NCBI GenBank assembly: GCA_963789945.1 | Contig: CAWBMN010000007.1 | Span: forward strand, 283,178-347,177 | Direction: 5' to 3' | DNA length: 64,000 nucleotides | DNA from: an uncultured beta proteobacterium | GTDB taxonomy: Bacteria; Pseudomonadota; Gammaproteobacteria; Burkholderiales; JACQAP01 | In this document: positions 3,574 through 60,548 of the stretch, piece after piece | How positions within the stretch are numbered: the stretch's first letter is position 1 | How the letters are laid out: each line of letters starts with the position of its first letter | Made by a program: the position numbers and the translations under genes | The notes under the pieces: generated by a model | What the model saw: only the letters and a program-made list of their open reading frames with translations | Database searches by the model: none | What the model was told of the DNA's origin: nothing

Positions 3574-3612
3574 GACGCAAAGGCGCAAAGACGCAAAGAA
3601 ATTCGAAGAAAC
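3574..3612. repeat. Foldback-family half element E2 (CGCAAAG units)
   Basis: GA-CGCAAAG-G-CGCAAAG-A-CGCAAAG-AAATTCGAAGAAACG lies just after the coxL-like stop. Only a degenerate partner (CTTACTTTCTCACTGCCTGCCTTGC, about 3688-3718) is visible. Confidence 0.6.
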
Positions 3613-13695: not shown

Positions 13696-14118
13696 ATGAA
13701 AGCACTGAAAGGTTCGAAGACCGAAAAAAGCTTGAAGGACGCGTTTGCCGGCGAATCACAGGCCAACCGCCGCTACCTGTATTTCGCAGCGAAAGCCGAC
13801 GTGGAAGGCCAGAACGACGTCGCTGCGGTGTTCCGCTCCACCGCCGAAGGCGAAACCGGTCATGCGCACGGCCATCTCGAGTACCTCGAAGCGGTGGGCG
13901 ACCCGGCAACCGGCCTGCCGATCGGCAAGTCGCGCGACAACCTGAAAGCGGCGATTGCCGGCGAGACCCACGAGTACACCGACATGTACCCCGGCATGGC
14001 CAAGGCCGCGCGCGACGAGGGCTTCGACGAAATCGCCGACTGGTTCGAGACCCTGGCCAAGGCGGAGCGCTCGCACGCCAACCGTTTCCAGAAGGCCCTG
14101 GACGCTCTGGCTGACTGA
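13696..14118 (+). CDS. Rubrerythrin-family diiron protein (no rubredoxin domain)
   Basis: 140 aa from ATG 13696. It has paired ExxH-type ligand segments: [13 protein letters not shown] and AERSHANRF. Confidence 0.9.
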
Positions 14119-14305
14119 AGTAGCAAGGCGAAAGGATGAAGGCGGAGGGTGGAAGGATGAAGAGCAAGGCGTAAGGATGAAGTAGGAAAGGTGAAGTCTG
14201 GAGTGGCGAAGCGCACCATTTGCTTCCGCCTTCGTCCTTCGTCCTTCATCCTTCATCCCTCATCCCTCATCCCTCATCCCTCATCCCTCATCCTTCATCC
14301 TTGTA
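14117..14305. repeat. Foldback element E3 (GGATGAAGG / CCTTCAT units)
   Basis: The left arm has AAGGATGAAG at 14132, 14153 and 14173 (20-21 nt period). The spacer is about 32 bp. The right arm has 11 tandem heptamers CCYTCRT at 14229-14305. The element starts at the rubrerythrin stop and ends 3 nt before ATG 14309. Confidence 0.9.
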
Positions 14306-20669: not shown

Positions 20670-20684
20670 ATGAAGAACAGTTTA

Positions 20685-20857
20685 GCCACAGAGGGCACAG
20701 AGAACACAGAGAAGAGGAAAAACAAAAAATACCAGTAGAAGGGAAAAATTCCTGGTCGCACAACCGAGACCACGTCAAACAGCCGGCGGAGATATCCGCA
20801 GTTATTGCGCGGTTTGCACGTTGGTTTTCCTCTGTGATCTCTGTGTCCTCTGTGGCC
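20685..20857. repeat. Foldback element E4 (CACAGAG units, 9-nt period)
   Basis: Left arm: GCCACAGAGGGCACAGAGAACACAGAGAAGAGGAAAAAC. Right arm: GTTTTCCTCTGTGATCTCTGTGTCCTCTGTGGC. Spacer about 111 bp. It lies between the rpmA terminator and the obg start. Confidence 0.92.
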
Positions 20858-20862
20858 AAGTA

Positions 20863-26628: not shown

Positions 26629-26706
26629 TAGTGGCTCGTGGCTAGTAAATTTGCCGGTCGTCCCCCGATTTCTTACCAACCACTAGCCACCAACCACCAG
26701 CCACTG
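26629..26706. repeat. Foldback element E5 (GTGGCTN / NAGCCAC heptamers)
   Basis: Left arm: GTGGCTC-GTGGCTA-GT. Spacer 26 bp. Right arm: CAACCAC-TAGCCAC-CAACCAC-CAGCCAC. It fills the ampD-HDAC gap and ends 5 nt before GTG 26712. Confidence 0.85.
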
Positions 26707-26711
26707 TCGTT

Positions 26712-27653
26712 GTGAAGATCTTCTACACCGACCACTACGTGCTGCCGCTTCCCGAGGGGTACCGGTTCCCGATGGCGAAGTACCGGCTTCTGCGTAAACG
26801 GGTTGAGGAAGCCGGCCTCGCAAATGGGGCAGGGCTGCACGAGCCACACGCAGCGACGGACGAGGAGATCCTGCGCGCGCACGATCGCGATTACCTGGAG
26901 CGGGTCGTGAGCGGCCGGTTGTCTGCGCAGGAGTTGCGCCGGATCGGCTTTCCCTGGACACCGCAAATGGTAGAGCGCTCGCGCCGTTCCGCCGGCGCCA
27001 CCATCGAGGCCTGCCGCGCTGCACTCGCCGACGGAGTCGGCGTAAATCTTGCCGGCGGCACTCATCATGCTTTCCGGGACCACGGCGAGGGCTATTGCGT
27101 TTTCAACGATTGCGCCGTAGCAGCATTGGCGATGCAGGCCGAAGGCCGCGCGCTGCGGGTCGCGATCCTCGACTGCGACGTGCATCAGGGCAACGGCACC
27201 GCCGCGATTCTGGCCGATGACCCGACCGTGTACACCTTCTCGATCCACGCCGCGAAAAATTTTCCGTTCCGCAAAGAGGTGAGCGACCTTGACATCGAAC
27301 TGCCGGACGGCGCCGGCGATTCCGACTACCTTGCCGCACTGGAACAAGGCATCTGCCACGCACTCTCGGCTGCACAGCCGGACCTGGCGATCTATCTTGC
27401 CGGCGCCGATCCTTACGAGGGCGACCGGCTCGGGCGGCTTGCGTTGACCAAAGAGGGTCTGCGGAAGCGCGACCGCAAGGTATTCGAGTTGTGCCGGGCG
27501 GCTTCGGTGTCGGTGGCCGTGGTGATGGCCGGCGGCTATTCCACTGACATTGCCGATACAGTGGACATCCACTTCTCCACCGTTGAAATCGCCGCAAGCA
27601 TCCCGCGCGCGTCGCAACATCCGGTTTTTTTCTCCGCAGTGCCGCAAATGTGA
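26712..27653 (+). CDS. Histone deacetylase-family amidohydrolase
   Basis: 313 aa with a GTG start. It contains GGTHHAFRDHGEGYCVFND and DCDVHQGNGT, the HDAC metal/active-site segments. Confidence 0.85.
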   Translation: MKIFYTDHYVLPLPEGYRFPMAKYRLLRKRVEEAGLANGAGLHEPHAATDEEILRAHDRDYLERVVSGRLSAQELRRIGFPWTPQMVERSRRSAGATIEACRAALADGVGVNLAGGTHHAFRDHGEGYCVFNDCAVAALAMQAEGRALRVAILDCDVHQGNGTAAILADDPTVYTFSIHAAKNFPFRKEVSDLDIELPDGAGDSDYLAALEQGICHALSAAQPDLAIYLAGADPYEGDRLGRLALTKEGLRKRDRKVFELCRAASVSVAVVMAGGYSTDIADTVDIHFSTVEIAASIPRASQHPVFFSAVPQM

Positions 27654-32601: not shown

Positions 32602-32922
32602 ATGGCAGCGAAGAGAAAAGCAGCGAAGAAGTCTACCAAGAAGAAGTCCACAGGCAAGAAGAAGGCCGCCAAGAAGCGTCCGGCAGCCAAGAAGGCAAAG
32701 CGCCGTTCCGGCAAGAAAAAGGCGGCGAAGAAAAAGGCCAAGAAGCCGGCCAAAAAGAAGGCGAAGAAGGCGAAGAAGCCCGCGAAAAAGAAGGCGAAGA
32801 AGAAAGCGGGCAAGAAGAAGCCTGCGGCCAGGCCGGCTGCCATGGCAGCCCCGGCCGCGCCGAAGCCAGTTTCTGCACCGGCGGCTTGGCCGTTTCCGGT
32901 AGCGGGTAACCGGCCTAACTAA
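32602..32922 (+). CDS. Histone H1-like lysine/alanine-rich nucleoid protein
   Basis: ATG 32602 follows AGGAGA. The protein is 106 aa: ~75 aa of K/A/P repeats (KKAAKK, KKPAKKKAKK) and then an A/P-rich tail. Confidence 0.72.
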   Translation: MAAKRKAAKKSTKKKSTGKKKAAKKRPAAKKAKRRSGKKKAAKKKAKKPAKKKAKKAKKPAKKKAKKKAGKKKPAARPAAMAAPAAPKPVSAPAAWPFPVAGNRPN

Positions 32923-33593: not shown

Positions 33594-34235
33594 TCAGCGA
33601 TTGGGTTGCGGGGTCATGCGCAAATAGGGACGCAACGCCTTGTAGCCTTTCGGGAATTTCTGCTTGATTATCTCCGGGTCCTGCAACGACGGCACGATGA
33701 CCACGTCGTCGCCGTCCTTCCAGTTCACCGGCGTGGCGACGCTGTAGCGGTCAGTGAGTTGCAGCGAATCGATCACCCTCAGGATCTCGTCGAAATTCCT
33801 CCCGGTGCTTGCCGGGTAGGTGATGGTCGCGCGCACTTTCTTATTCGGGTCGATGATGAAAACCGAACGCACGGTGAACGTGTCGCTGGCATTCGGGTGG
33901 ATCATGTCGTAGAGGTTCGACACCTTCCGGTCGGCGTCCGCCAGGATCGGAAAATTGACCCTGGTTTTCTGCGTGTCGTTGATGTCGTCGATCCACTTGA
34001 TATGCGAGTCCACCGGGTCGACACTCACCGCGATTGCCTTGACGCCGCGCTTCTCGAACTCAGCCTTGAGCTTGGCGGTGTAGCCGAGTTCAGTGGTGCA
34101 CACCGGGGTAAAATCCTTCGGGTGGGAGAACAGGACGGTCCAGCTGTTGCCGATCCACTTGTGAAACTCGATCGGTCCCGTGCTGGATTCCTGCGTGAAA
34201 TCGGGGGCAATGTCGCCCAGTCGTAAAGTGGCCAT
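33594..34235 (-). CDS. 1-Cys peroxiredoxin (Prx6-like)
   Basis: 213 aa. It contains MATLRLGDIAPDF, and the peroxidatic site is HPKDFTPVCTTE. Confidence 0.92.
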   Translation of the reverse strand: MATLRLGDIAPDFTQESSTGPIEFHKWIGNSWTVLFSHPKDFTPVCTTELGYTAKLKAEFEKRGVKAIAVSVDPVDSHIKWIDDINDTQKTRVNFPILADADRKVSNLYDMIHPNASDTFTVRSVFIIDPNKKVRATITYPASTGRNFDEILRVIDSLQLTDRYSVATPVNWKDGDDVVIVPSLQDPEIIKQKFPKGYKALRPYLRMTPQPNR

Positions 34236-34348
34236 GATGATCTCCGGTTAGCTTTCGAAACTTGAACGGGTGAGTCTAGCGGCCGCTTTATATTACACAA
34301 ACGAACGCTTTTACATATCTTAATTCCGGATGGGCTTATAGTCGGAGT

Positions 34349-34570
34349 GTGGCCATGGAAAGAAAGAAAGTGAACTCGAGCTCAATCCGGGCGGTCGGGT
34401 ACGACGAGCGCGGCCGCGTGCTGGAGGTGGAATTCAACGACGGCCGCGTCAATCAGTACAACGGGGTTTCGCCCGAAGTGCACCGGCGGCTGATCAGCGC
34501 GCCGTCGATCATCAGCTATTTCCGCGATAACGTCGAAGAGTCCTTTCCCGCAAAGCGCGTAAAGGGGTAG
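34349..34570 (+). CDS. KTSC domain-containing protein
   Basis: 73 aa. VNSSSIRAVGYDERGRVLEVEFNDGRVNQYNGVSPEVHRRL matches the KTSC pattern. The start could instead be ATG 34355. Confidence 0.72.
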   Translation: MAMERKKVNSSSIRAVGYDERGRVLEVEFNDGRVNQYNGVSPEVHRRLISAPSIISYFRDNVEESFPAKRVKG

Positions 34571-34593
34571 CCGGCCGATGGCCGGCATCAGAT

Positions 34594-34726
34594 GCGCTGA
34601 CGCGAAGGGCGCAAGGGAAAAAAGAAAGTACGGGAAAGCTATACTTTTACGAGCCACGAGCCAGAGCCACGAGCCACGAGCCACGAGCCACGAGCCACGA
34701 GCCACGAGCCACGAGCCACGAGCCAC
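34594..34726. repeat. Composite foldback-family element E6a, with an expanded (GAGCCAC)11 array
   Basis: The head GCGCTGACGCGAAGGGCGCAAGGGAAAAAAG (34594-34627) is homologous to 39139-39170. It is followed by 11 tandem heptamers GAGCCAC, one of them 6 nt, at 34651-34726. Confidence 0.9.
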
Positions 34727-34731
34727 GGCGT

Positions 34732-35331
34732 TCAACATTCCGGCTCCCCTTCCTTAGGCCGGGGATTCGGATCGAAACCGAATTTCTGCGGCACCTCGCC
34801 AGCCTGGATACGCCCTACCGGGACGCGGTTGCCGGCATAGTCGAAATACAGCCCGGTCGCGTGACGCCGGGCCCCGGCATCGAAGGCTCGCCCCAGAACG
34901 GCGTCGCCGACCGGCTTGCCGTGAACATCGGTGAACAGGACCATGATGTCCGCCAGGTCGCGATCGCTGACCAGGCCCGGGCCGCCGCTCCAGCGCAACA
35001 ACAGTGAGCCCGTTTCGTCCATCCACGCGCCGGTGGCTCGCTCCACTGCCTGCCCCGTATGCGTGATCAGTGCTGTCGCGCCGGTGCCGGCGGTAGCAAT
35101 GACGAAAGGCGCATATTCCAGCGTCACGAACACCCGTTGCGGCCCGTTCTGGAAAAACCAGCGCCCCTGCTCGTCGGCGGCATAATTGCGGCCGATAAAG
35201 GCTACAACACCCGGGTTGGATATCCGCTCTCCCTTGATCATCCAACTGCCACGACGATCCAGGCTCAACCACCCATATACGTGGGGTACGTTGGGCCACT
35301 TGGCCATTGACTGGATGACGATCGGGTCCAT
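34732..35331 (-). CDS. Conserved hypothetical protein
   Basis: The ORF is open from 35430, but the plausible start is ATG 35331 or 35307 (MAKWPNVPHVYGWLSLDRRGSWMIKGERISNP...RWFFQNGPQRVFVTLEYAPF). I cannot name the family with confidence. Confidence 0.55.
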   Translation of the reverse strand: MDPIVIQSMAKWPNVPHVYGWLSLDRRGSWMIKGERISNPGVVAFIGRNYAADEQGRWFFQNGPQRVFVTLEYAPFVIATAGTGATALITHTGQAVERATGAWMDETGSLLLRWSGGPGLVSDRDLADIMVLFTDVHGKPVGDAVLGRAFDAGARRHATGLYFDYAGNRVPVGRIQAGEVPQKFGFDPNPRPKEGEPEC

Positions 35332-35422
35332 GCGGATGCAGAATAGGCAGGCGCCAAAAAAAATTCTACCCGTCTCGCACAATAACGGCCCCGGAAGGCC
35401 GTGGTCGAACGTAGACTTGTTA

Positions 35423-35528
35423 CCAGTCACCAGTCACCAGTCACCAGTCACCAGTCACCAGTCACCAGTCACCAGTCACCAGTCACCAGTCACCAGTCAC
35501 CAGTCACCAGTCACCAGTCACCAGTCAC
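35423..35528. repeat. Expanded heptamer array E6b, (CCAGTCA)15
   Basis: About 15 perfect tandem copies (106 bp) lie in the divergent gap between the hypothetical gene and the GST gene. The array ends at the GGAG RBS of the GST gene. The unit matches the NNGTCAC right-arm units of E11 and E14. Confidence 0.95.
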
Positions 35529-35538
35529 GGAGTCGTCA

Positions 35539-36183
35539 ATGGCACTGACCTTCTACTACGGTTCCGGCTCGCCCTATGCATGGCGGGTCTGGCTTGCGCT
35601 TGAACACAAGGCGATTGCCTACGAATTGAAGACGATCTCGTTCTCGGCGGGCGACCTCAAGAAGCCCGAGTTCCTGAAGATCAACCCGCGCCACAAAGTA
35701 CCCGCGATTACCGACGGCGACCTGGCCCTGTACGAATCGGCCGCAATTGTGGAATACCTGGACGAGCAATACGCTTCGGGCAAGAAGCTCTTTCCTGGCA
35801 ACGCCAGGCAGCGTGCGGTTATCCGGCGCCTGGTGCGTGAAGCGGACGAATATTTCGCCCACGCGCAGGAGCGGCTGGTTGACCAGGTGCTGTTCACGCC
35901 GCAGGACAAGTGGGATGCCGGCGAGATTGCCTCCGCGCGCAAATCCCTGGGGCGGGAACTGGGAATTTTCGAGGGTTACCTGTCCGGTGATTACCTGTCC
36001 GGCGAATTCTCGGCCGCGGACATCACGCTTTATCCCATGATCGCGCTGTGCCTGCGCATGGAAAGAAAGAAGCCGGATCTGGATGTGCGCAGCGCTATCG
36101 GATCGAAGCTCGGCGCATGGATGAAGCGCATCGAGGCGCTGCCGTACTTCGACAAGACCTATCCCCCGCACTGGAAAACCTGA
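35539..36183 (+). CDS. Glutathione S-transferase
   Basis: ATG 35539 lies 7 nt after GGAG. The protein has MALTFYYGSGSPYAWRVW, KVPAITDGDLALYESAAIVEYL and a GST C-terminal domain. Confidence 0.9.
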   Translation: MALTFYYGSGSPYAWRVWLALEHKAIAYELKTISFSAGDLKKPEFLKINPRHKVPAITDGDLALYESAAIVEYLDEQYASGKKLFPGNARQRAVIRRLVREADEYFAHAQERLVDQVLFTPQDKWDAGEIASARKSLGRELGIFEGYLSGDYLSGEFSAADITLYPMIALCLRMERKKPDLDVRSAIGSKLGAWMKRIEALPYFDKTYPPHWKT

Positions 36184-36215
36184 GTCAGCCGGTCTGACGA
36201 CTGGCTGCAAAAGCG

Positions 36216-36403
36216 TTGACGCAGAGGTCGCAGAGATACGCAGAGGGCACGGAGAAAAACAAGATAGGAATCTGGAGGGGAGGCAAATTGGGAATCTAGT
36301 GCTTGCACGTGAGTGACTGGGGAGCGGCACCGAACACTCACTCCCTTCGTTCCGCATTCCTCTGCGACCTTTCTTGCCTTTCTCTGCGCCCTCTGCGTCA
36401 ACG
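36216..36403. repeat. Foldback element E7 (CGCAGAG units)
   Basis: Left arm: CGTTGACGCAGAGG-TCGCAGAG-ATACGCAGAG-GGCACGGAGAAAAAC. Right arm: CCTCTGCG...CTCTGCG-CC-CTCTGCGTCAACG. The ~90-bp spacer has an internal hairpin GTGAGTG/CACTCAC. It fills the gap between the convergent GST and VOC genes. Confidence 0.92.
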
Positions 36404-36406
36404 ACC

Positions 36407-36859
36407 TTATTGCTGGCCTCCGGCGAGCTTGTCCCAGTTGTCGTGCCGATGGCGGCGCTCGTCGCGGTAGTTGGTCACTTCAAGGCGCAAGCCATCCGGG
36501 TCGCTGAAGAAGGTTGCATAGTAATCGACCGCGTACTCCGGGTACTGTTTCGGCTCTGAAGCGTCGATACCTGCAGCGCGCAACTTCGCCGCCGTATCCT
36601 CCACCTCGTCTTTGCCTTCGACGCGCAGACAGAAGTGATGCAGTCCCGGCGCATACGGGTCATGAGGAATGCGGCTTCTGGCCGGCCGCAGCACGAAGCC
36701 GAAGTGCCGGTTGAAGTACTGAACGTGCGGGTCGCCACCAATCGTAAATATGTTCTTCCTGAAACCGAGGGCGGCCATTGCCCTGTCATAGAACGCCTCG
36801 GAACGGCCAAGGTCGCTCACGGCAATATAGATGTGGTCTATTCCAATGACTTCGCTCAT
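36407..36859 (-). CDS. VOC/glyoxalase-family protein
   Basis: 150 aa. GIDHIYIAVSDLGRSEAFY and GLHHFCLRVEG are typical of the VOC fold. Confidence 0.82.
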   Translation of the reverse strand: MSEVIGIDHIYIAVSDLGRSEAFYDRAMAALGFRKNIFTIGGDPHVQYFNRHFGFVLRPARSRIPHDPYAPGLHHFCLRVEGKDEVEDTAAKLRAAGIDASEPKQYPEYAVDYYATFFSDPDGLRLEVTNYRDERRHRHDNWDKLAGGQQ

Positions 36860-38247: not shown

Positions 38248-38413
38248 TTCACCACGAAGGCACGAAGACACGAAGGAATTCGAATTCGAACCGTAATTGT
38301 TATGCGATACCGGTGACCGCCAGTGGTCCTGTTGCAGTCGGCGAACAAGCCAGGATATTTCGGTTTTCGCAAACCTTCAGATTTTCTTCGTGTCTTCGTG
38401 CCTTCGTGGTGAA
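38248..38413. repeat. Foldback element E8 (CACGAAG units, 8-nt period)
   Basis: The arms form a perfect 28-nt inverted repeat, TTCACCACGAAGGCACGAAGACACGAAG (left 38248-38275; reverse complement at about 38386-38413). Spacer about 87 bp. It lies between otnK and otnC. Confidence 0.95.
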
Positions 38414-50195: not shown

Positions 50196-50395
50196 CTGCA
50201 AAAGTCAAAGTCGTTAGCCACAGAGGACACAGAGACCACAGAGAACTGCAAAGACGAAAACGATAATAGGAACAAAGAACAAAACAAAAACCCGCGGGAA
50301 ACGTCATGTATCCACCCAGTCCCGGTGTCTGTCTCGCGTCTTGCTTATTCGCTCTTCTCTGTGCCCTCTGTGCCCTCTGTGTCCTCTGTGGCCAA
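50196..50395. repeat. Foldback element E10 (CACAGAG units)
   Basis: The leader CTGCAAAAG is followed by the left arm TTAGCCACAGAGGACACAGAGACCACAGAGAAC (3 units). Spacer about 87 bp. The right arm is TTCTCTGTGCCCTCTGTGCCCTCTGTGTCCTCTGTGGCCAA (4 units). It lies between the SDR and FAH genes. Confidence 0.92.
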
Positions 50396-53771: not shown

Positions 53772-53892
53772 GTGACCGGTAACCGGTGACTGGTGAGGTA
53801 GGATGGAGCAGGACTCGATGAGGGGACAATAAGTGCAGACTTGCGAAGCACGTCTCATCACGCAGTCACTCGTCACTAGTCACCCGTCACCG
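53772..53892. repeat. Foldback element E11 (GTGACNN heptamers)
   Basis: Left arm: GTGACCG-GTAACCG-GTGACTG-GTGAGGT. Spacer 54 bp. The right arm has five NNGTCAC-type units: (CT)CATCAC-GCAGTCAC-TCGTCAC-TAGTCAC-CCGTCAC. It ends 6 nt before ATG 53898. Confidence 0.9.
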
Positions 53893-53897
53893 ATTCT

Positions 53898-54805
53898 ATG
53901 GGAGCGCTCTCTCGATTCTTCGATAGCCGCAATGTCCTCGGGTTGTTGTTCATGCTGCCCGCGGCGGCACTGCTGCTGGTGTTCCTGACCTATCCGCTGG
54001 GTCTGGGTGTTTGGCTGGGATTCACCGATACCAAGGTCGGGCGCGCCGGAGGCTGGATCGGCATCGAGAACTACGAATTCCTGGTGACCGACAGCGTGTT
54101 CACGCTGTCGGTGTTCAATACCTTCGTGTACACGGTTGTTGCGAGCGTCATCAAGTTCATTCTGGGACTGTGGCTGGCCTTGCTCCTCAACAAGCACATT
54201 CCTTTCAAGTCGTTCGTCCGAGCCATCGTGCTGCTGCCGTTCATCGTGCCCACGGTGCTTTCGGCGATCGCATTCTGGTGGATCTACGATGCCCAGTTCT
54301 CGATCGTGAGTTGGGTGCTGGTGAGACTGGGGATCATTGACCAGTACATCAATTTCCTCGGCGAGCCGAACCTTGCGCGCATGTCCACGATCATCGCCAA
54401 CATCTGGCGTGGCGTGCCCTTCGTGGCGATCTGCCTGCTGGCCGGGCTGCAGACCATACCGCCGTCGATGTACGAAGCGGCGAGCATCGACGGGGCGAGC
54501 CCCTGGCAGCAGTTCTGGCACGTCACGCTGCCCATGCTCTCGCCGATCATCGCGGTGGTCATGACTTTCTCGGTGCTGTTCACGTTCACCGATTTTCAGT
54601 TGATCTGGGTGCTGACCCGCGGCGGACCGATCAACGCCACCCATCTGATGGCCACGCTTTCTTTTCAACGTGCGATCCCCGGCGGGGCACTGGGTGAAGG
54701 TGCGGCGATCGCTACCGCGATGATTCCGTTCCTGCTGGCGGCGATTCTGTTCCGTACTTCGGGTTGCAGCGGAGAAGGTGGCAGCAGGGGGGGAGCGACA
54801 AGTGA
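53898..54805 (+). pseudogene. ABC transporter permease 1 (MalF/UgpA-like) with a -1 frameshift near its 3' end
   Basis: It is a six-TM permease with an EAA-like loop (YEAASIDGASPWQQFWHVTLP). After ...PFLLAAILF the family-like tail YFGLQRRRWQQGGSDK and its stop (TGA 54803-54805) lie in the -1 frame. The annotated ORF instead reads on to 54983 through element E12. Confidence 0.75.
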
Positions 54806-54907
54806 CGAGGTTCGAGGTACGAGGGCCGAGGTTCGAGTGGAAACCAAGCGCTATAGGAAGCATTTGAACTTACTCGGCCCTCGTCACCTCGGTCCTCGGC
54901 CCTCGCT
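54804..54907. repeat. Foldback element E12 (NNCGAGG heptamers)
   Basis: Left arm: GACGAGG-TTCGAGG-TACGAGG-GCCGAGG-TTCGAGT. Spacer 34 bp. Right arm: CTCGGCC-CTCGTCA-CCTCGGT-CCTCGGC-CCTCGCT. It lies between the two permease genes. Confidence 0.9.
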
Positions 54908-55794: not shown

Positions 55795-55963
55795 CTTGAC
55801 CACAGAGGACACAGAGGGCACCGAGGAAAGAAAAGTCAGAAATTGCTTGAGTTAGCACTGGAGCGATATCGGGGATTCCTGCGTCGGCAACCATGAGAGG
55901 CTCGGTCCTCTTCCGATTGCTGCTTTTGTTCTTCTGTGTGATCTCTGTGTTCTCTGTGGTCAA
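55795..55963. repeat. Foldback element E13 (CACAGAG units)
   Basis: Left arm: TTGACCACAGAGGACACAGAGGGCACCGAGGAAAGAAAAG. Spacer about 87 bp. Right arm: CTTTTGTTCTTCTGTGTGATCTCTGTGTTCTCTGTGGTCAA. Confidence 0.92.
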
Positions 55964-59372: not shown

Positions 59373-59530
59373 GTGACTTGTGACAAGTGACAAGTGACAA
59401 GTGACAGGACTCGCCACAATCGCTGACTAGAGAAAGCAGTCCGCAGGAAGCCCGAATCACGAAAACGACAAAGTCAGGATGTCGAGGATTATTGCCCTTG
59501 CCTCGTCACCTGTCACTAGTCACTCGTCAC
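59373..59530. repeat. Foldback element E14 (GTGACAA heptamers)
   Basis: Left arm: GTGACTT-GTGACAA-GTGACAA-GTGACAA-GTGACAG. Spacer 95 bp. Right arm: TCGTCAC-CTGTCAC-TAGTCAC-TCGTCAC. Confidence 0.92.
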
Positions 59531-59548
59531 CGCGCGCGGAGCAAAGCA

Positions 59549-59848
59549 ATGGCTGAAGATTCATCGAAGGAACTGTTCGAGTTCTTCCAGAAGATGTGGA
59601 ACCCGATGTCGTTTCCCATTCCCGGCATGTTCCAGCCGACCATGAGTGTCGAGGAAGTGGAGAAGAAGATCGTGGAACTGCAGTCGGTCGAGAACTGGCT
59701 GAAGATGAACCTGACCTTCGTACAGATGACCATAAAGACCCTGGAGATGCAGAAATCTGCCTTGCAGACGATCCAGGAATCTGCCGCGGCAACCGCGCAG
59801 AAGCCCCCGAAGAAACCGAAGGACGAGGGGCAAGGCGCAAAGAAGTAG
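59549..59848 (+). CDS. PhaM-like PHA-granule-associated protein
   Basis: 99 aa. EEVEKKIVELQSVENWLKMNLTFVQMTIKTLEMQKSAL resembles the PhaM core, and the tail is lysine-rich (PPKKPKDEGQGAKK). Confidence 0.55.
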   Translation: MAEDSSKELFEFFQKMWNPMSFPIPGMFQPTMSVEEVEKKIVELQSVENWLKMNLTFVQMTIKTLEMQKSALQTIQESAAATAQKPPKKPKDEGQGAKK

Positions 59849-60480: not shown

Positions 60481-60548
60481 AAGGATGAAGGATGAAGGAG
60501 GAAGGATGAAGAGAAGTATCATTGCTCATCCGCTTTTCTTCGTTCGTG
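60481..60548. repeat. Foldback-family element E15 (AAGGATG heptamers, short partner)
   Basis: AAGGATG-AAGGATG-AAGGAGG-AAGGATG-AAGAGAA is followed after ~8 nt by a degenerate partner, GCTCATCCGCTTTTCTTCGTTCG. Confidence 0.75.

Follow-up and report, generated by a model that had tools for sequence, protein, structure and literature searches.

Two long heptanucleotide arrays around a DUF2944 gene of an uncultured soil Burkholderiales bacterium: probable slippage-driven, non-coding repeat loci

What are the two long heptamer arrays that bracket a single gene in the genome of an uncultured soil Burkholderiales bacterium, and how did they come to be there? The question is raised by a stretch of 64,000 nt, here called the window, to which all coordinates refer. 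In it, a gene for a DUF2944 protein (PF11161; 34732-35331, minus strand; 199 amino acids (aa), E 3.6e-56) lies between array A (34651-34726) and array B (35423-35528, plus strand), the latter adjoining the Shine-Dalgarno sequence of a glutathione S-transferase (GST) gene (35539-36183, plus strand; 214 aa). Exact look-ups of the window's own DUF2944 and GST proteins gave no record. Short arrays with units of 7-9 nt are unusually abundant in the source genome. From comparison with related loci we conclude that both arrays are probably hypervariable, non-coding loci of the variable-number tandem repeat (VNTR) or long simple sequence repeat (SSR) type with a heptanucleotide unit, and that slippage drives their variation.

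That two long heptamer arrays flank one gene, as a first-pass annotation had stated, was confirmed by direct reading and by Tandem Repeats Finder (TRF). TRF places array A at 34649-34727 (period 7, 11.4 copies, 97% matches) and array B at 35422-35528 (period 7, 15.3 copies, 100% matches); both are thus head-to-tail repeats of a short unit at high identity, which is the form of a VNTR. Read directly, array A, which is (GAGCCAC)11 on the plus strand and GTGGCTC in the sense of DUF2944, comprises one GAGCCAC (34651-34657), a 6-nt GAGCCA (34658-34663) and nine perfect units (34664-34726). Array B comprises 15 perfect copies of CCAGTCA (35423-35527) and a C at 35528, or TACCAGT(CACCAGT)14CAC in the sense of GST. 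The arrays are 76 bp (A) and 105 bp (B) long.

Array A is located between the convergent 3' ends of DUF2944 and of a KTSC-domain gene to its left (34355-34570, plus strand), and array B in the divergent gap between DUF2944 and GST. Both have unique flanks, namely GGAGCCGGAATGTTGAACGCC and GTAAAAGTATAGC for array A and GTAGACTTGT and GGAGTCGTCAATGGCAC for array B. The annotated adjacency of array A to the DUF2944 stop codon (34732-34734) stood, the interval being 5 nt (GGCGT) and not 6 nt. For array B the annotation was accurate in that the repeat ends exactly at the GST ribosome-binding site (RBS): the final CAC is directly followed by GGAG (35529-35532), a 6-nt spacer and the ATG at 35539 (35529-35541), so that 10 nt separate the end of the array from the start codon.

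Relative to each other, the arrays point the same way: in both, the minus strand reads GTGNCTN. Because of this direct orientation we rejected the idea that they are two arms of one large inverted element around DUF2944. An inverted-repeat search that paired other elements found no complementary partner array for 34651-34726 or 35423-35528. Neither the RNA fold of the GST leader (35405-35640; z = +1.04, with only 2-bp helices within array B) nor that of the DUF2944 3' region (z = +1.2) was better than those of shuffled sequences. When folded as DNA, the CCAGTCA strand gave 0 kcal/mol and the other array strands weak structures only. Rfam 15 at gathering score matched nothing but a tRNA in the whole window, and a scan of 34200-36500 at E<=1 returned chance-level matches only, none of them credible.

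The evidence that carries our conclusion comes from alleles. The best matches of the window are metagenome-assembled genomes labelled Burkholderiales or Betaproteobacteria from soil and similar metagenomes. Strain loci were found via a peroxiredoxin identical to the 1-Cys peroxiredoxin encoded beside KTSC on the left side of the locus, and further loci via a metagenome scan together with DUF2944 and GST cluster representatives. Loci L001-L004, which carry the identical peroxiredoxin and whose flanking DNA is 96-98% identical to the window, are treated here, on this sequence identity, as the same species; L176 is a separate species with about 87% nucleotide identity to the window.

At the site of array A (alignment A1) the window has 11 units including the one GAGCCA, L001 has 9 with one GTGGC, L002 has 7, and L004 has 5 with one GTGGCTG; the separate species L176 has 7. 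The contigs of L003 and L188 begin inside the array and contain at least 5 and at least 8 units, respectively. Across these alleles, including the six from other assemblies, the flanks are identical and copy number alone varies. The interruptions are lineage-specific (GAGCCA, GTGGC or GTGGCTG), as is expected for arrays that grow and shrink independently of each other.

The surroundings of array A point to its origin. A GC-rich hairpin, GCCGGCC-GAT-GGCCGGC (34570-34586), overlaps the KTSC stop codon and is kept in every allele of alignment A1; it probably serves as terminator between the convergent genes, as far as its form and position tell. A simple terminator scan did not call it, for want of a T-run. 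Next to it, positions 34598-34638 (TGACGCGAAGG GCGCAAGGG aaaaaagaaagt ACGGGAAAG) are half of a decayed inverted-array hairpin element without a complementary partner arm, and array A occupies the place where the loop and the other arm would be expected. Array A itself was rejected as the complement of this half element because the two show no complementarity. Elsewhere the same site looks different. In L171-L174 it is empty, with a single hairpin, TTAGCTGGCCAGGGGCCGGCTAGCC, and 19 bp between both stop codons; in L005 and L007 it holds a complete inverted-array element, TTGACGCAAAGG...CCTTTGCGTCAA, and in L175, L091 and L092 a partly complete one. More distant relatives carry inverted arrays of other units there (CACAGAGG, GCGCAGAGG, GAAAGGT and AGTGCTG/CAGCACN). 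Judged by these sequences, array A appears to be a long-lived variable array within a decayed hairpin element.

Among close relatives the gap between the DUF2944 and KTSC stop codons thus exists in at least three allelic states: empty, with a full or partial element, and with array A beside a half element. Where the site is filled, two hairpins flank the element in place of the one hairpin seen at the empty site, which suggests insertion into, or duplication of, a palindromic terminator. The contig of L005 starts (1-300) with a perfect fold-back palindrome centred on the hairpin element, with the KTSC 3' end on either side of it. Most likely the inverted arms misled the assembly here, and the case calls for caution when alleles are read from short contigs.

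At the site of array B all heptamer alleles, in GST sense, end in CAC|GGAG-N6-ATG (alignment A2), and only the window has 15 units. At the identical position its relatives have one to four imperfect ones: the conspecific L001 has three (TGCCAGT GACCAGT CACCAGC CAC), L010 has (CACCAGT)3 CAC, L093 and L094 have two (CACCAGT CACCAAT CAC), L188 has two degenerate ones (CACCAGA CCCAGT CAC), and L180-L187 have a single degenerate unit. Two to four imperfect CACCRRT units are found in L011, L013, L014, L095-L097 and L099-L101, at 70-73% DUF2944 identity. The separate species L176 carries TACCAGT (CACAGT)2 CACCAGT TAC, and the contigs of L177 and L178, which encode the same GST protein, begin inside at least four CACAGT units. 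From these alleles it appears that a 6-nt derivative, CACAGT, expanded independently at this site, and that the site would be unstable whatever the length of the unit. By contrast, the eight contigs L180-L187 come from different samples and share an identical leader, so that variability goes with the presence of a repeat. In the sister species with the single degenerate unit both GST and its leader are intact, and the long form of array B is therefore not required. In L002, L091, L092, L171-L175 and L179 an unrelated, heptamer-free GST leader is linked to a different DUF2944 N-terminus.

The 5' end of DUF2944 is itself structurally unstable. In L176 (1070-1368), in L010 (4001-4763) and upstream of DUF2944 in L095, L096 and L099, a module containing a copy of the gene's first 13-16 codons is inserted or tandemly repeated there; it measures 128 bp, or about 166 bp in L010. 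L176 has two copies at 94% identity and a partial third. Two N-terminal variants of the protein are in circulation, beginning with MDPIVIQ... or MDEAVIK..., the latter accompanying the heptamer-free GST leader. A further oddity concerns the conspecific L001 (ENA ERZ25039602), where at 2700-2800 only about the first 25 codons of GST are left, joined to a PQQ-repeat gene; this is either a chimeric assembly or a true rearrangement beside the site of array B. The glyoxalase look-up led to two contigs from Logan, given without DNA, which also end within the N-terminal region of GST.

Taking these alleles together, we propose the following history. Array B would have started as an old, short array of one to four imperfect CACCRRT units, placed between the divergent promoter region and the GST Shine-Dalgarno sequence, and would have expanded to 15 perfect units in this strain alone; its perfection suggests that the growth was recent. 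Array A would be the longer-lived variable array, ranging from 5 to 11 units, in the decayed hairpin element of the shared 3' region of DUF2944 and KTSC. In both, units are probably gained and lost by replication slippage, a mechanism to which the whole-unit differences, the lineage-specific interruptions and the parallel expansion of the 6-nt derivative all point. Growth in situ by slippage from a short array is well supported. The original suggestion that the arrays are single arms grown by slippage fits these data well, since alleles differ by whole units between fixed flanks (5-11 units for A, 1-4 versus 15 for B); a comparison of related strains, which had been recommended as a check, thus found copy number to vary at both sites and the flanks to be conserved.

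Could array B be translated? The annotation had pointed to an open reading frame (ORF) at 35401-36183, of 260 aa, whose read-through would give SPVTSHQ repeats; if it were translated, a 7-nt unit would shift the reading frame. This ORF is open because 105 nt of CCAGTCA contain no stop codon in that frame. The best 120 GST relatives listed are 201-241 aa long, and all of them align only to the 214-aa GST part, none covering the extension. All seven GST sequences that were read carry the N-terminal motif MAL(T/I)TFYYGSGSPYAWRVW and none has a repeat-encoded extension; the few longer GST sequences have N-terminal extensions that are unrelated and not repetitive. We therefore rejected the extension as an artefact of ORF listing, given that the GST relatives examined lack repeat-encoded residues. 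The ATG at 35539 is, on the evidence of these alignments, taken as the true GST start, and arrays A and B are non-coding.

A consensus scan of 34300-35700 for sigma-70 promoters and intrinsic terminators found none. The only conserved promoter-like feature is AAATT[CG]TAC (35361-35369), which is kept in every heptamer-bearing relative and reads TAGAAT or TACAAT on the DUF2944 strand; it lies outside array B, about 55 bp away on the DUF2944 side. The conserved block AAAATTCTAC at 35360-35369, which in the window gives TAGAAT when read from the minus strand, is a candidate site at which the -10 boxes of the two divergent promoters (DUF2944 and GST) would overlap. If both promoters were located at 35360-35369, array B would be part of the GST leader and would cover approximately -60 to -165 of the DUF2944 promoter, and the number of units would then alter leader length and upstream distance, not the spacing of a core promoter. 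The likely effects of the arrays are a longer, unstructured and C/A-rich GST leader, a longer 3' untranslated region (UTR) of DUF2944, and a DUF2944 promoter moved further from whatever is upstream. For expression this would mean graded modulation at most, an on/off switch being unlikely.

Several observations weigh against this explanation of the arrays as hypervariable, slippage-driven repeats. The alleles come from different samples and mostly from short-read metagenome assemblies, which may render array lengths imprecise. Array A has at least five units in every carrier, including L176 at about 87% nucleotide identity, and this constancy could reflect selection for a long array rather than neutral drift. 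Finally, a short CAC-heptamer array is kept beside the GST RBS in relatives with 70-86% DUF2944 identity. Its retention suggests that the short form has a function which slippage does not name.

This last point leads to the alternative that survives best, although we consider it unlikely. It holds that CAC-phased heptamer arrays beside start codons function in cis, a regulator or a protein that binds single-stranded nucleic acid recognising them in a 7-nt register, and that array B is a hyper-dosed version of such a site. Short (CACCRRT)n arrays that end in CAC|GGA indeed occupy the same place before GST in more than ten relatives (70-86% DUF2944 identity). Moreover, on the sense strand, four CAC-phased heptamer arrays of the window stop 7-18 nt short of a start codon. 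Besides array B, which precedes the GST ATG at 35539, they are found at 26681-26704 before the GTG at 26712 of a 313-aa ORF without family assignment, at 53867-53890 before the ATG at 53898 of an ABC permease gene, and at 59507-59530 before the ATG at 59549 of a PhaM-family gene. Judging by eye, we take the start of the 313-aa protein to resemble those of deacetylase-family proteins. Two of the four genes, those for the 313-aa protein and the ABC permease, have no recognisable Shine-Dalgarno sequence (26705-26714 and 53891-53900, respectively), and their start codons are exactly 7 nt past the last CAC. A similar situation exists for the TAACTGA repeats of Beggiatoaceae, for which S1, Csp or CsrA have been proposed as binders (PMC4679880). 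Against such an element speaks that it is dispensable, since one sister species is down to one degenerate unit and the leader of others is unrelated, and that the expansion of a 6-nt derivative in the place of array B breaks a strict 7-nt register. In addition, of the four arrays in the window three belong to hairpin elements occupying short intergenic gaps, and their proximity to a start codon may be an incidental by-product. The four downstream genes are functionally unrelated, and array A precedes no gene and follows no start codon. A role of the short ancestral array B is plausible and partly contradicted by the lineages that lack it.

A bolder and still less probable extension of the cis-element idea would be that CAC-phased arrays, with or without a complementary upstream arm, form a genome-wide class of leader or intercistronic cis-elements that are read in a 7-nt register by a single-strand-binding factor, for example a cold-shock-domain or S1-like protein, and turned over by slippage. 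If this were true, array B would provide a natural dose series of 1 to 15 sites before one gene, the same recognition code would explain why the arms of hairpin elements co-vary, and arrays A and B would show that single arms can escape pairing and expand.

The first-pass annotation had interpreted the arrays as contingency loci, that is, as sites of phase variation at which frequent, reversible and selectively maintained changes in unit number switch or tune GST, DUF2944 or both through promoter geometry or leader length. We regard this as doubtful, and less probable than a bound cis-element. The variation in copy number between conspecific strains at both sites would be compatible with it, as would the fact that array B, perfect throughout, immediately precedes an RBS in a divergent intergenic gap. 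So would the breaking of contigs within arrays in L003, L188 and L177/L178, which is suggestive only and agrees with mixed lengths. A precedent is provided by the heptamers (ATCTTTC)n in the 5' UTR of hmw1A, which confer graded expression (PMC12721329). By contrast, array A is located between convergent 3' ends and has no promoter, and array B is outside any recognisable -35/-10 spacer and outside coding sequence, so that neither a promoter nor a frame effect of the kind originally envisaged finds support. Array B also has no complementary partner with which to form a hairpin as required by the hmw mechanism (z = +1.0). Typical contingency genes have surface or restriction functions, unlike a cytoplasmic-type GST and a DUF2944 protein. 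Furthermore, L002, L171-L175 and L180-L187, with one to three units or a different leader, keep the GST start and RBS. What is possible is contingency of array B in the form of a graded leader effect.

Slippage in situ also has to be set against delivery, in which the arrays arrived ready-made as orphan arms of a mobile hairpin element resembling a miniature inverted-repeat transposable element (MITE) and did not grow in place. The setting invites this idea. Elements come and go downstream of DUF2944 (empty in L171-L174, full in L005/L007, partial in L175/L091/L092), array A lies inside the half element 34598-34638, and its unit type, like that of array B, matches arms elsewhere. The latter had been noted before and proved correct, with matching arms at 26631-26704, 53772-53890 and 59373-59530: GTGGCTC GTGGCTA (26631-26644) faces GTGGCTN-type units on the other strand (26677-26704), and GTGACNN/GTCACNN units form the arms at 53772-53799/53863-53890 and 59373-59407/59503-59530. 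However, element arms elsewhere have 2-5 units and not 11-15. Array B forms a series of 1, 2, 3, 4 and 15 units at one fixed position with both flanks conserved, and the alleles of array A differ in unit number alone between identical flanks, which argues for gain and loss in situ. Ready-made delivery is thus improbable. Least probable is mis-assembly of the arrays or of their lengths, since, even though short-read assemblies break at arrays (L003, L188, L177/L178) and the end of L005 is a fold-back artefact, at least six independent assemblies show array A between the same flanks, the short array-B site is present in many, and arrays of 105 bp and 76 bp fit within single reads.

How exceptional are arrays A and B within their own genome? 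The census of tandem arrays was taken from TRF because a stricter home-made finder missed most short arrays. At 2.8 copies or more, TRF lists 11 arrays of period 7 in the window, three of period 8, seven of period 9 and one of period 3, and no other period; periods 7 and 9 predominate among the tandem repeats of the window and of the related loci. When the window and 0.84 Mb of related loci were surveyed for units of 5-12 nt in six or more copies, only four arrays were found besides array B and the alleles of array A: those of the degenerate pair at 14117-14302, and a single one in each of the loci L047, L101 and L170. None of them exceeds array A or B in length or perfection. Most window arrays are organized as inverted pairs about 60-160 bp apart (e.g. 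20682-20859, 36214-36403, 38248-38413, 50214-50395 and 55796-55963), in which approximately three tandem units face their own complement and the intervening spacer visibly varies from copy to copy. Compared with any such arm, arrays A and B are three to five times longer.

These inverted pairs belong to a dense family of inverted-array hairpins, with copies at 165-300, 3574-3599, 14117-14302, 20682-20859, 26631-26704 and 36214-36403 and further sites at 38248-38413, 50214-50395, 53772-53892, 54806-54905, 55796-55963 and 59373-59531. Their units of 7-9 nt include CACAGAGG, GACGCAGAG, CACGAAGG, AAGGATG, CGAGGTT and GTGACNN, among others. The copies often have TTGAC...GTCAA-like ends and are near-perfectly complementary across a centre of 60-160 bp; the arm units vary from copy to copy, yet both arms within one copy match. 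No Rfam family matched these elements. In the pair at 14117-14302 both arms are expanded, about ten degenerate GAAGGAG/AAGGATG units facing (CCTTCAT/CCCTCAT)10.6. A solo array, (AAGGATG)4.4 at 60481-60511, shares its unit with this pair and is located directly past a terminator-like hairpin. Of a different kind are the tandem repeats of period 12-33 at 32625-32808, which consist of AAG and GCC codons (GAAGAAGGCCAAG...) in what appears to be a Lys/Ala-rich coding region.

If slippage in situ is the correct explanation, array B offers a clean natural case of a leader array of one to four units that ran away to 15, paralleled in a sister lineage by the expansion of a mutated unit of 6 nt; this fits polymerase slippage and not a sequence-specific process. 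Both arrays should be useful as high-resolution strain markers for this uncultured soil Burkholderiales population. Bacteria carry an excess of intergenic heptamer repeats that is poorly understood, and to this the arrays contribute an example from the betaproteobacteria; they also link solo arrays to an inverted-array hairpin family that was mentioned only in passing before (Geobacter, 2009). Should short CAC-heptamer arrays beside start codons be functional, the GST locus would represent a ready allelic series.

There is no indication here of a new mechanism, and the arrays belong to a known kind, represented by TAACTGA, GGGAATC, STRR and the heptanucleotide SSRs of hmw. An excess of intergenic heptamers in bacteria and their length variation in close relatives, among them Xanthomonas strains, have been described, with slippage as the proposed cause (Rehm et al. 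2015, PMC4692102). According to that paper, Mrazek et al. 2007 had already observed heptamers to be over-represented in general. The short tandemly repeated repetitive (STRR) sequences of cyanobacteria and the GGGAATC-type repeats of Xanthomonas and Nostoc (PMC4692102) resemble the present arrays in having intergenic 7-nt units at many loci per genome, some of them as inverted pairs, in varying in length and sequence between close relatives at the same intergenic site, and in the slippage proposed for them. The units found here have other sequences and are not G-rich, and thus have no G-quadruplex potential. They come from an uncultured soil Burkholderiales host, whose genome employs many different units instead of one.

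A second parallel is given by the TAACTGA repeats of Beggiatoaceae, Cyanobacteria and Bacteroidetes (MacGregor 2015, PMC4679880). These, too, are forward direct heptamers a few nucleotides from a start codon, typically two to six and occasionally up to 43 copies, and they share with the window arrays the occasional very long representative (15 units here) and unrelated downstream genes, some without a Shine-Dalgarno sequence. They differ in their unit, which is CCAGTCA (CACCAGT/CACNNNN) or GAGCCAC in our case, and in that array B stops just before a good GGAG and does not replace it. Moreover, most window arrays have a complementary arm, which is rare in Beggiatoa.

Array B can further be compared with the 5'-UTR (ATCTTTC)n repeats of Haemophilus influenzae hmw1A and hmw2A, which pair with a G-rich partner as the left arm of a long hairpin; RNase III then cleaves this hairpin (Rapun-Araiz et al. 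2025, PMC12721329). Like them, array B is a strain-variable heptamer SSR of at least 10 units between the promoter region and a start codon. Unlike them, it lacks a partner, its predicted fold is no more stable than that of shuffled sequence, and it precedes a GST and not an adhesin gene; the ecology of its host differs as well. We therefore rejected an hmw-type leader hairpin for array B (z = +1.04; 0 kcal/mol for the CCAGTCA strand).

The inverted-array elements of the window, finally, have a counterpart in the paired sites of Geobacter metallireducens, where opposite strands carry three TCTCCGTS[Y] repeats, spaced by a variable distance, and where five MTYCTGA heptamers were also reported (Aklujkar et al. 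2009, PMC2700814). They were read, without tests, as binding sites of a regulator or of IHF/HU (PMC2700814). In the window, too, about three units of 7-9 nt face their complement across a variable spacer, and CACGGAG- and TCAGGAT-like units are also present. What sets arrays A and B apart from the Geobacter sites is that they stand solo and exceed any arm three- to fivefold in length.

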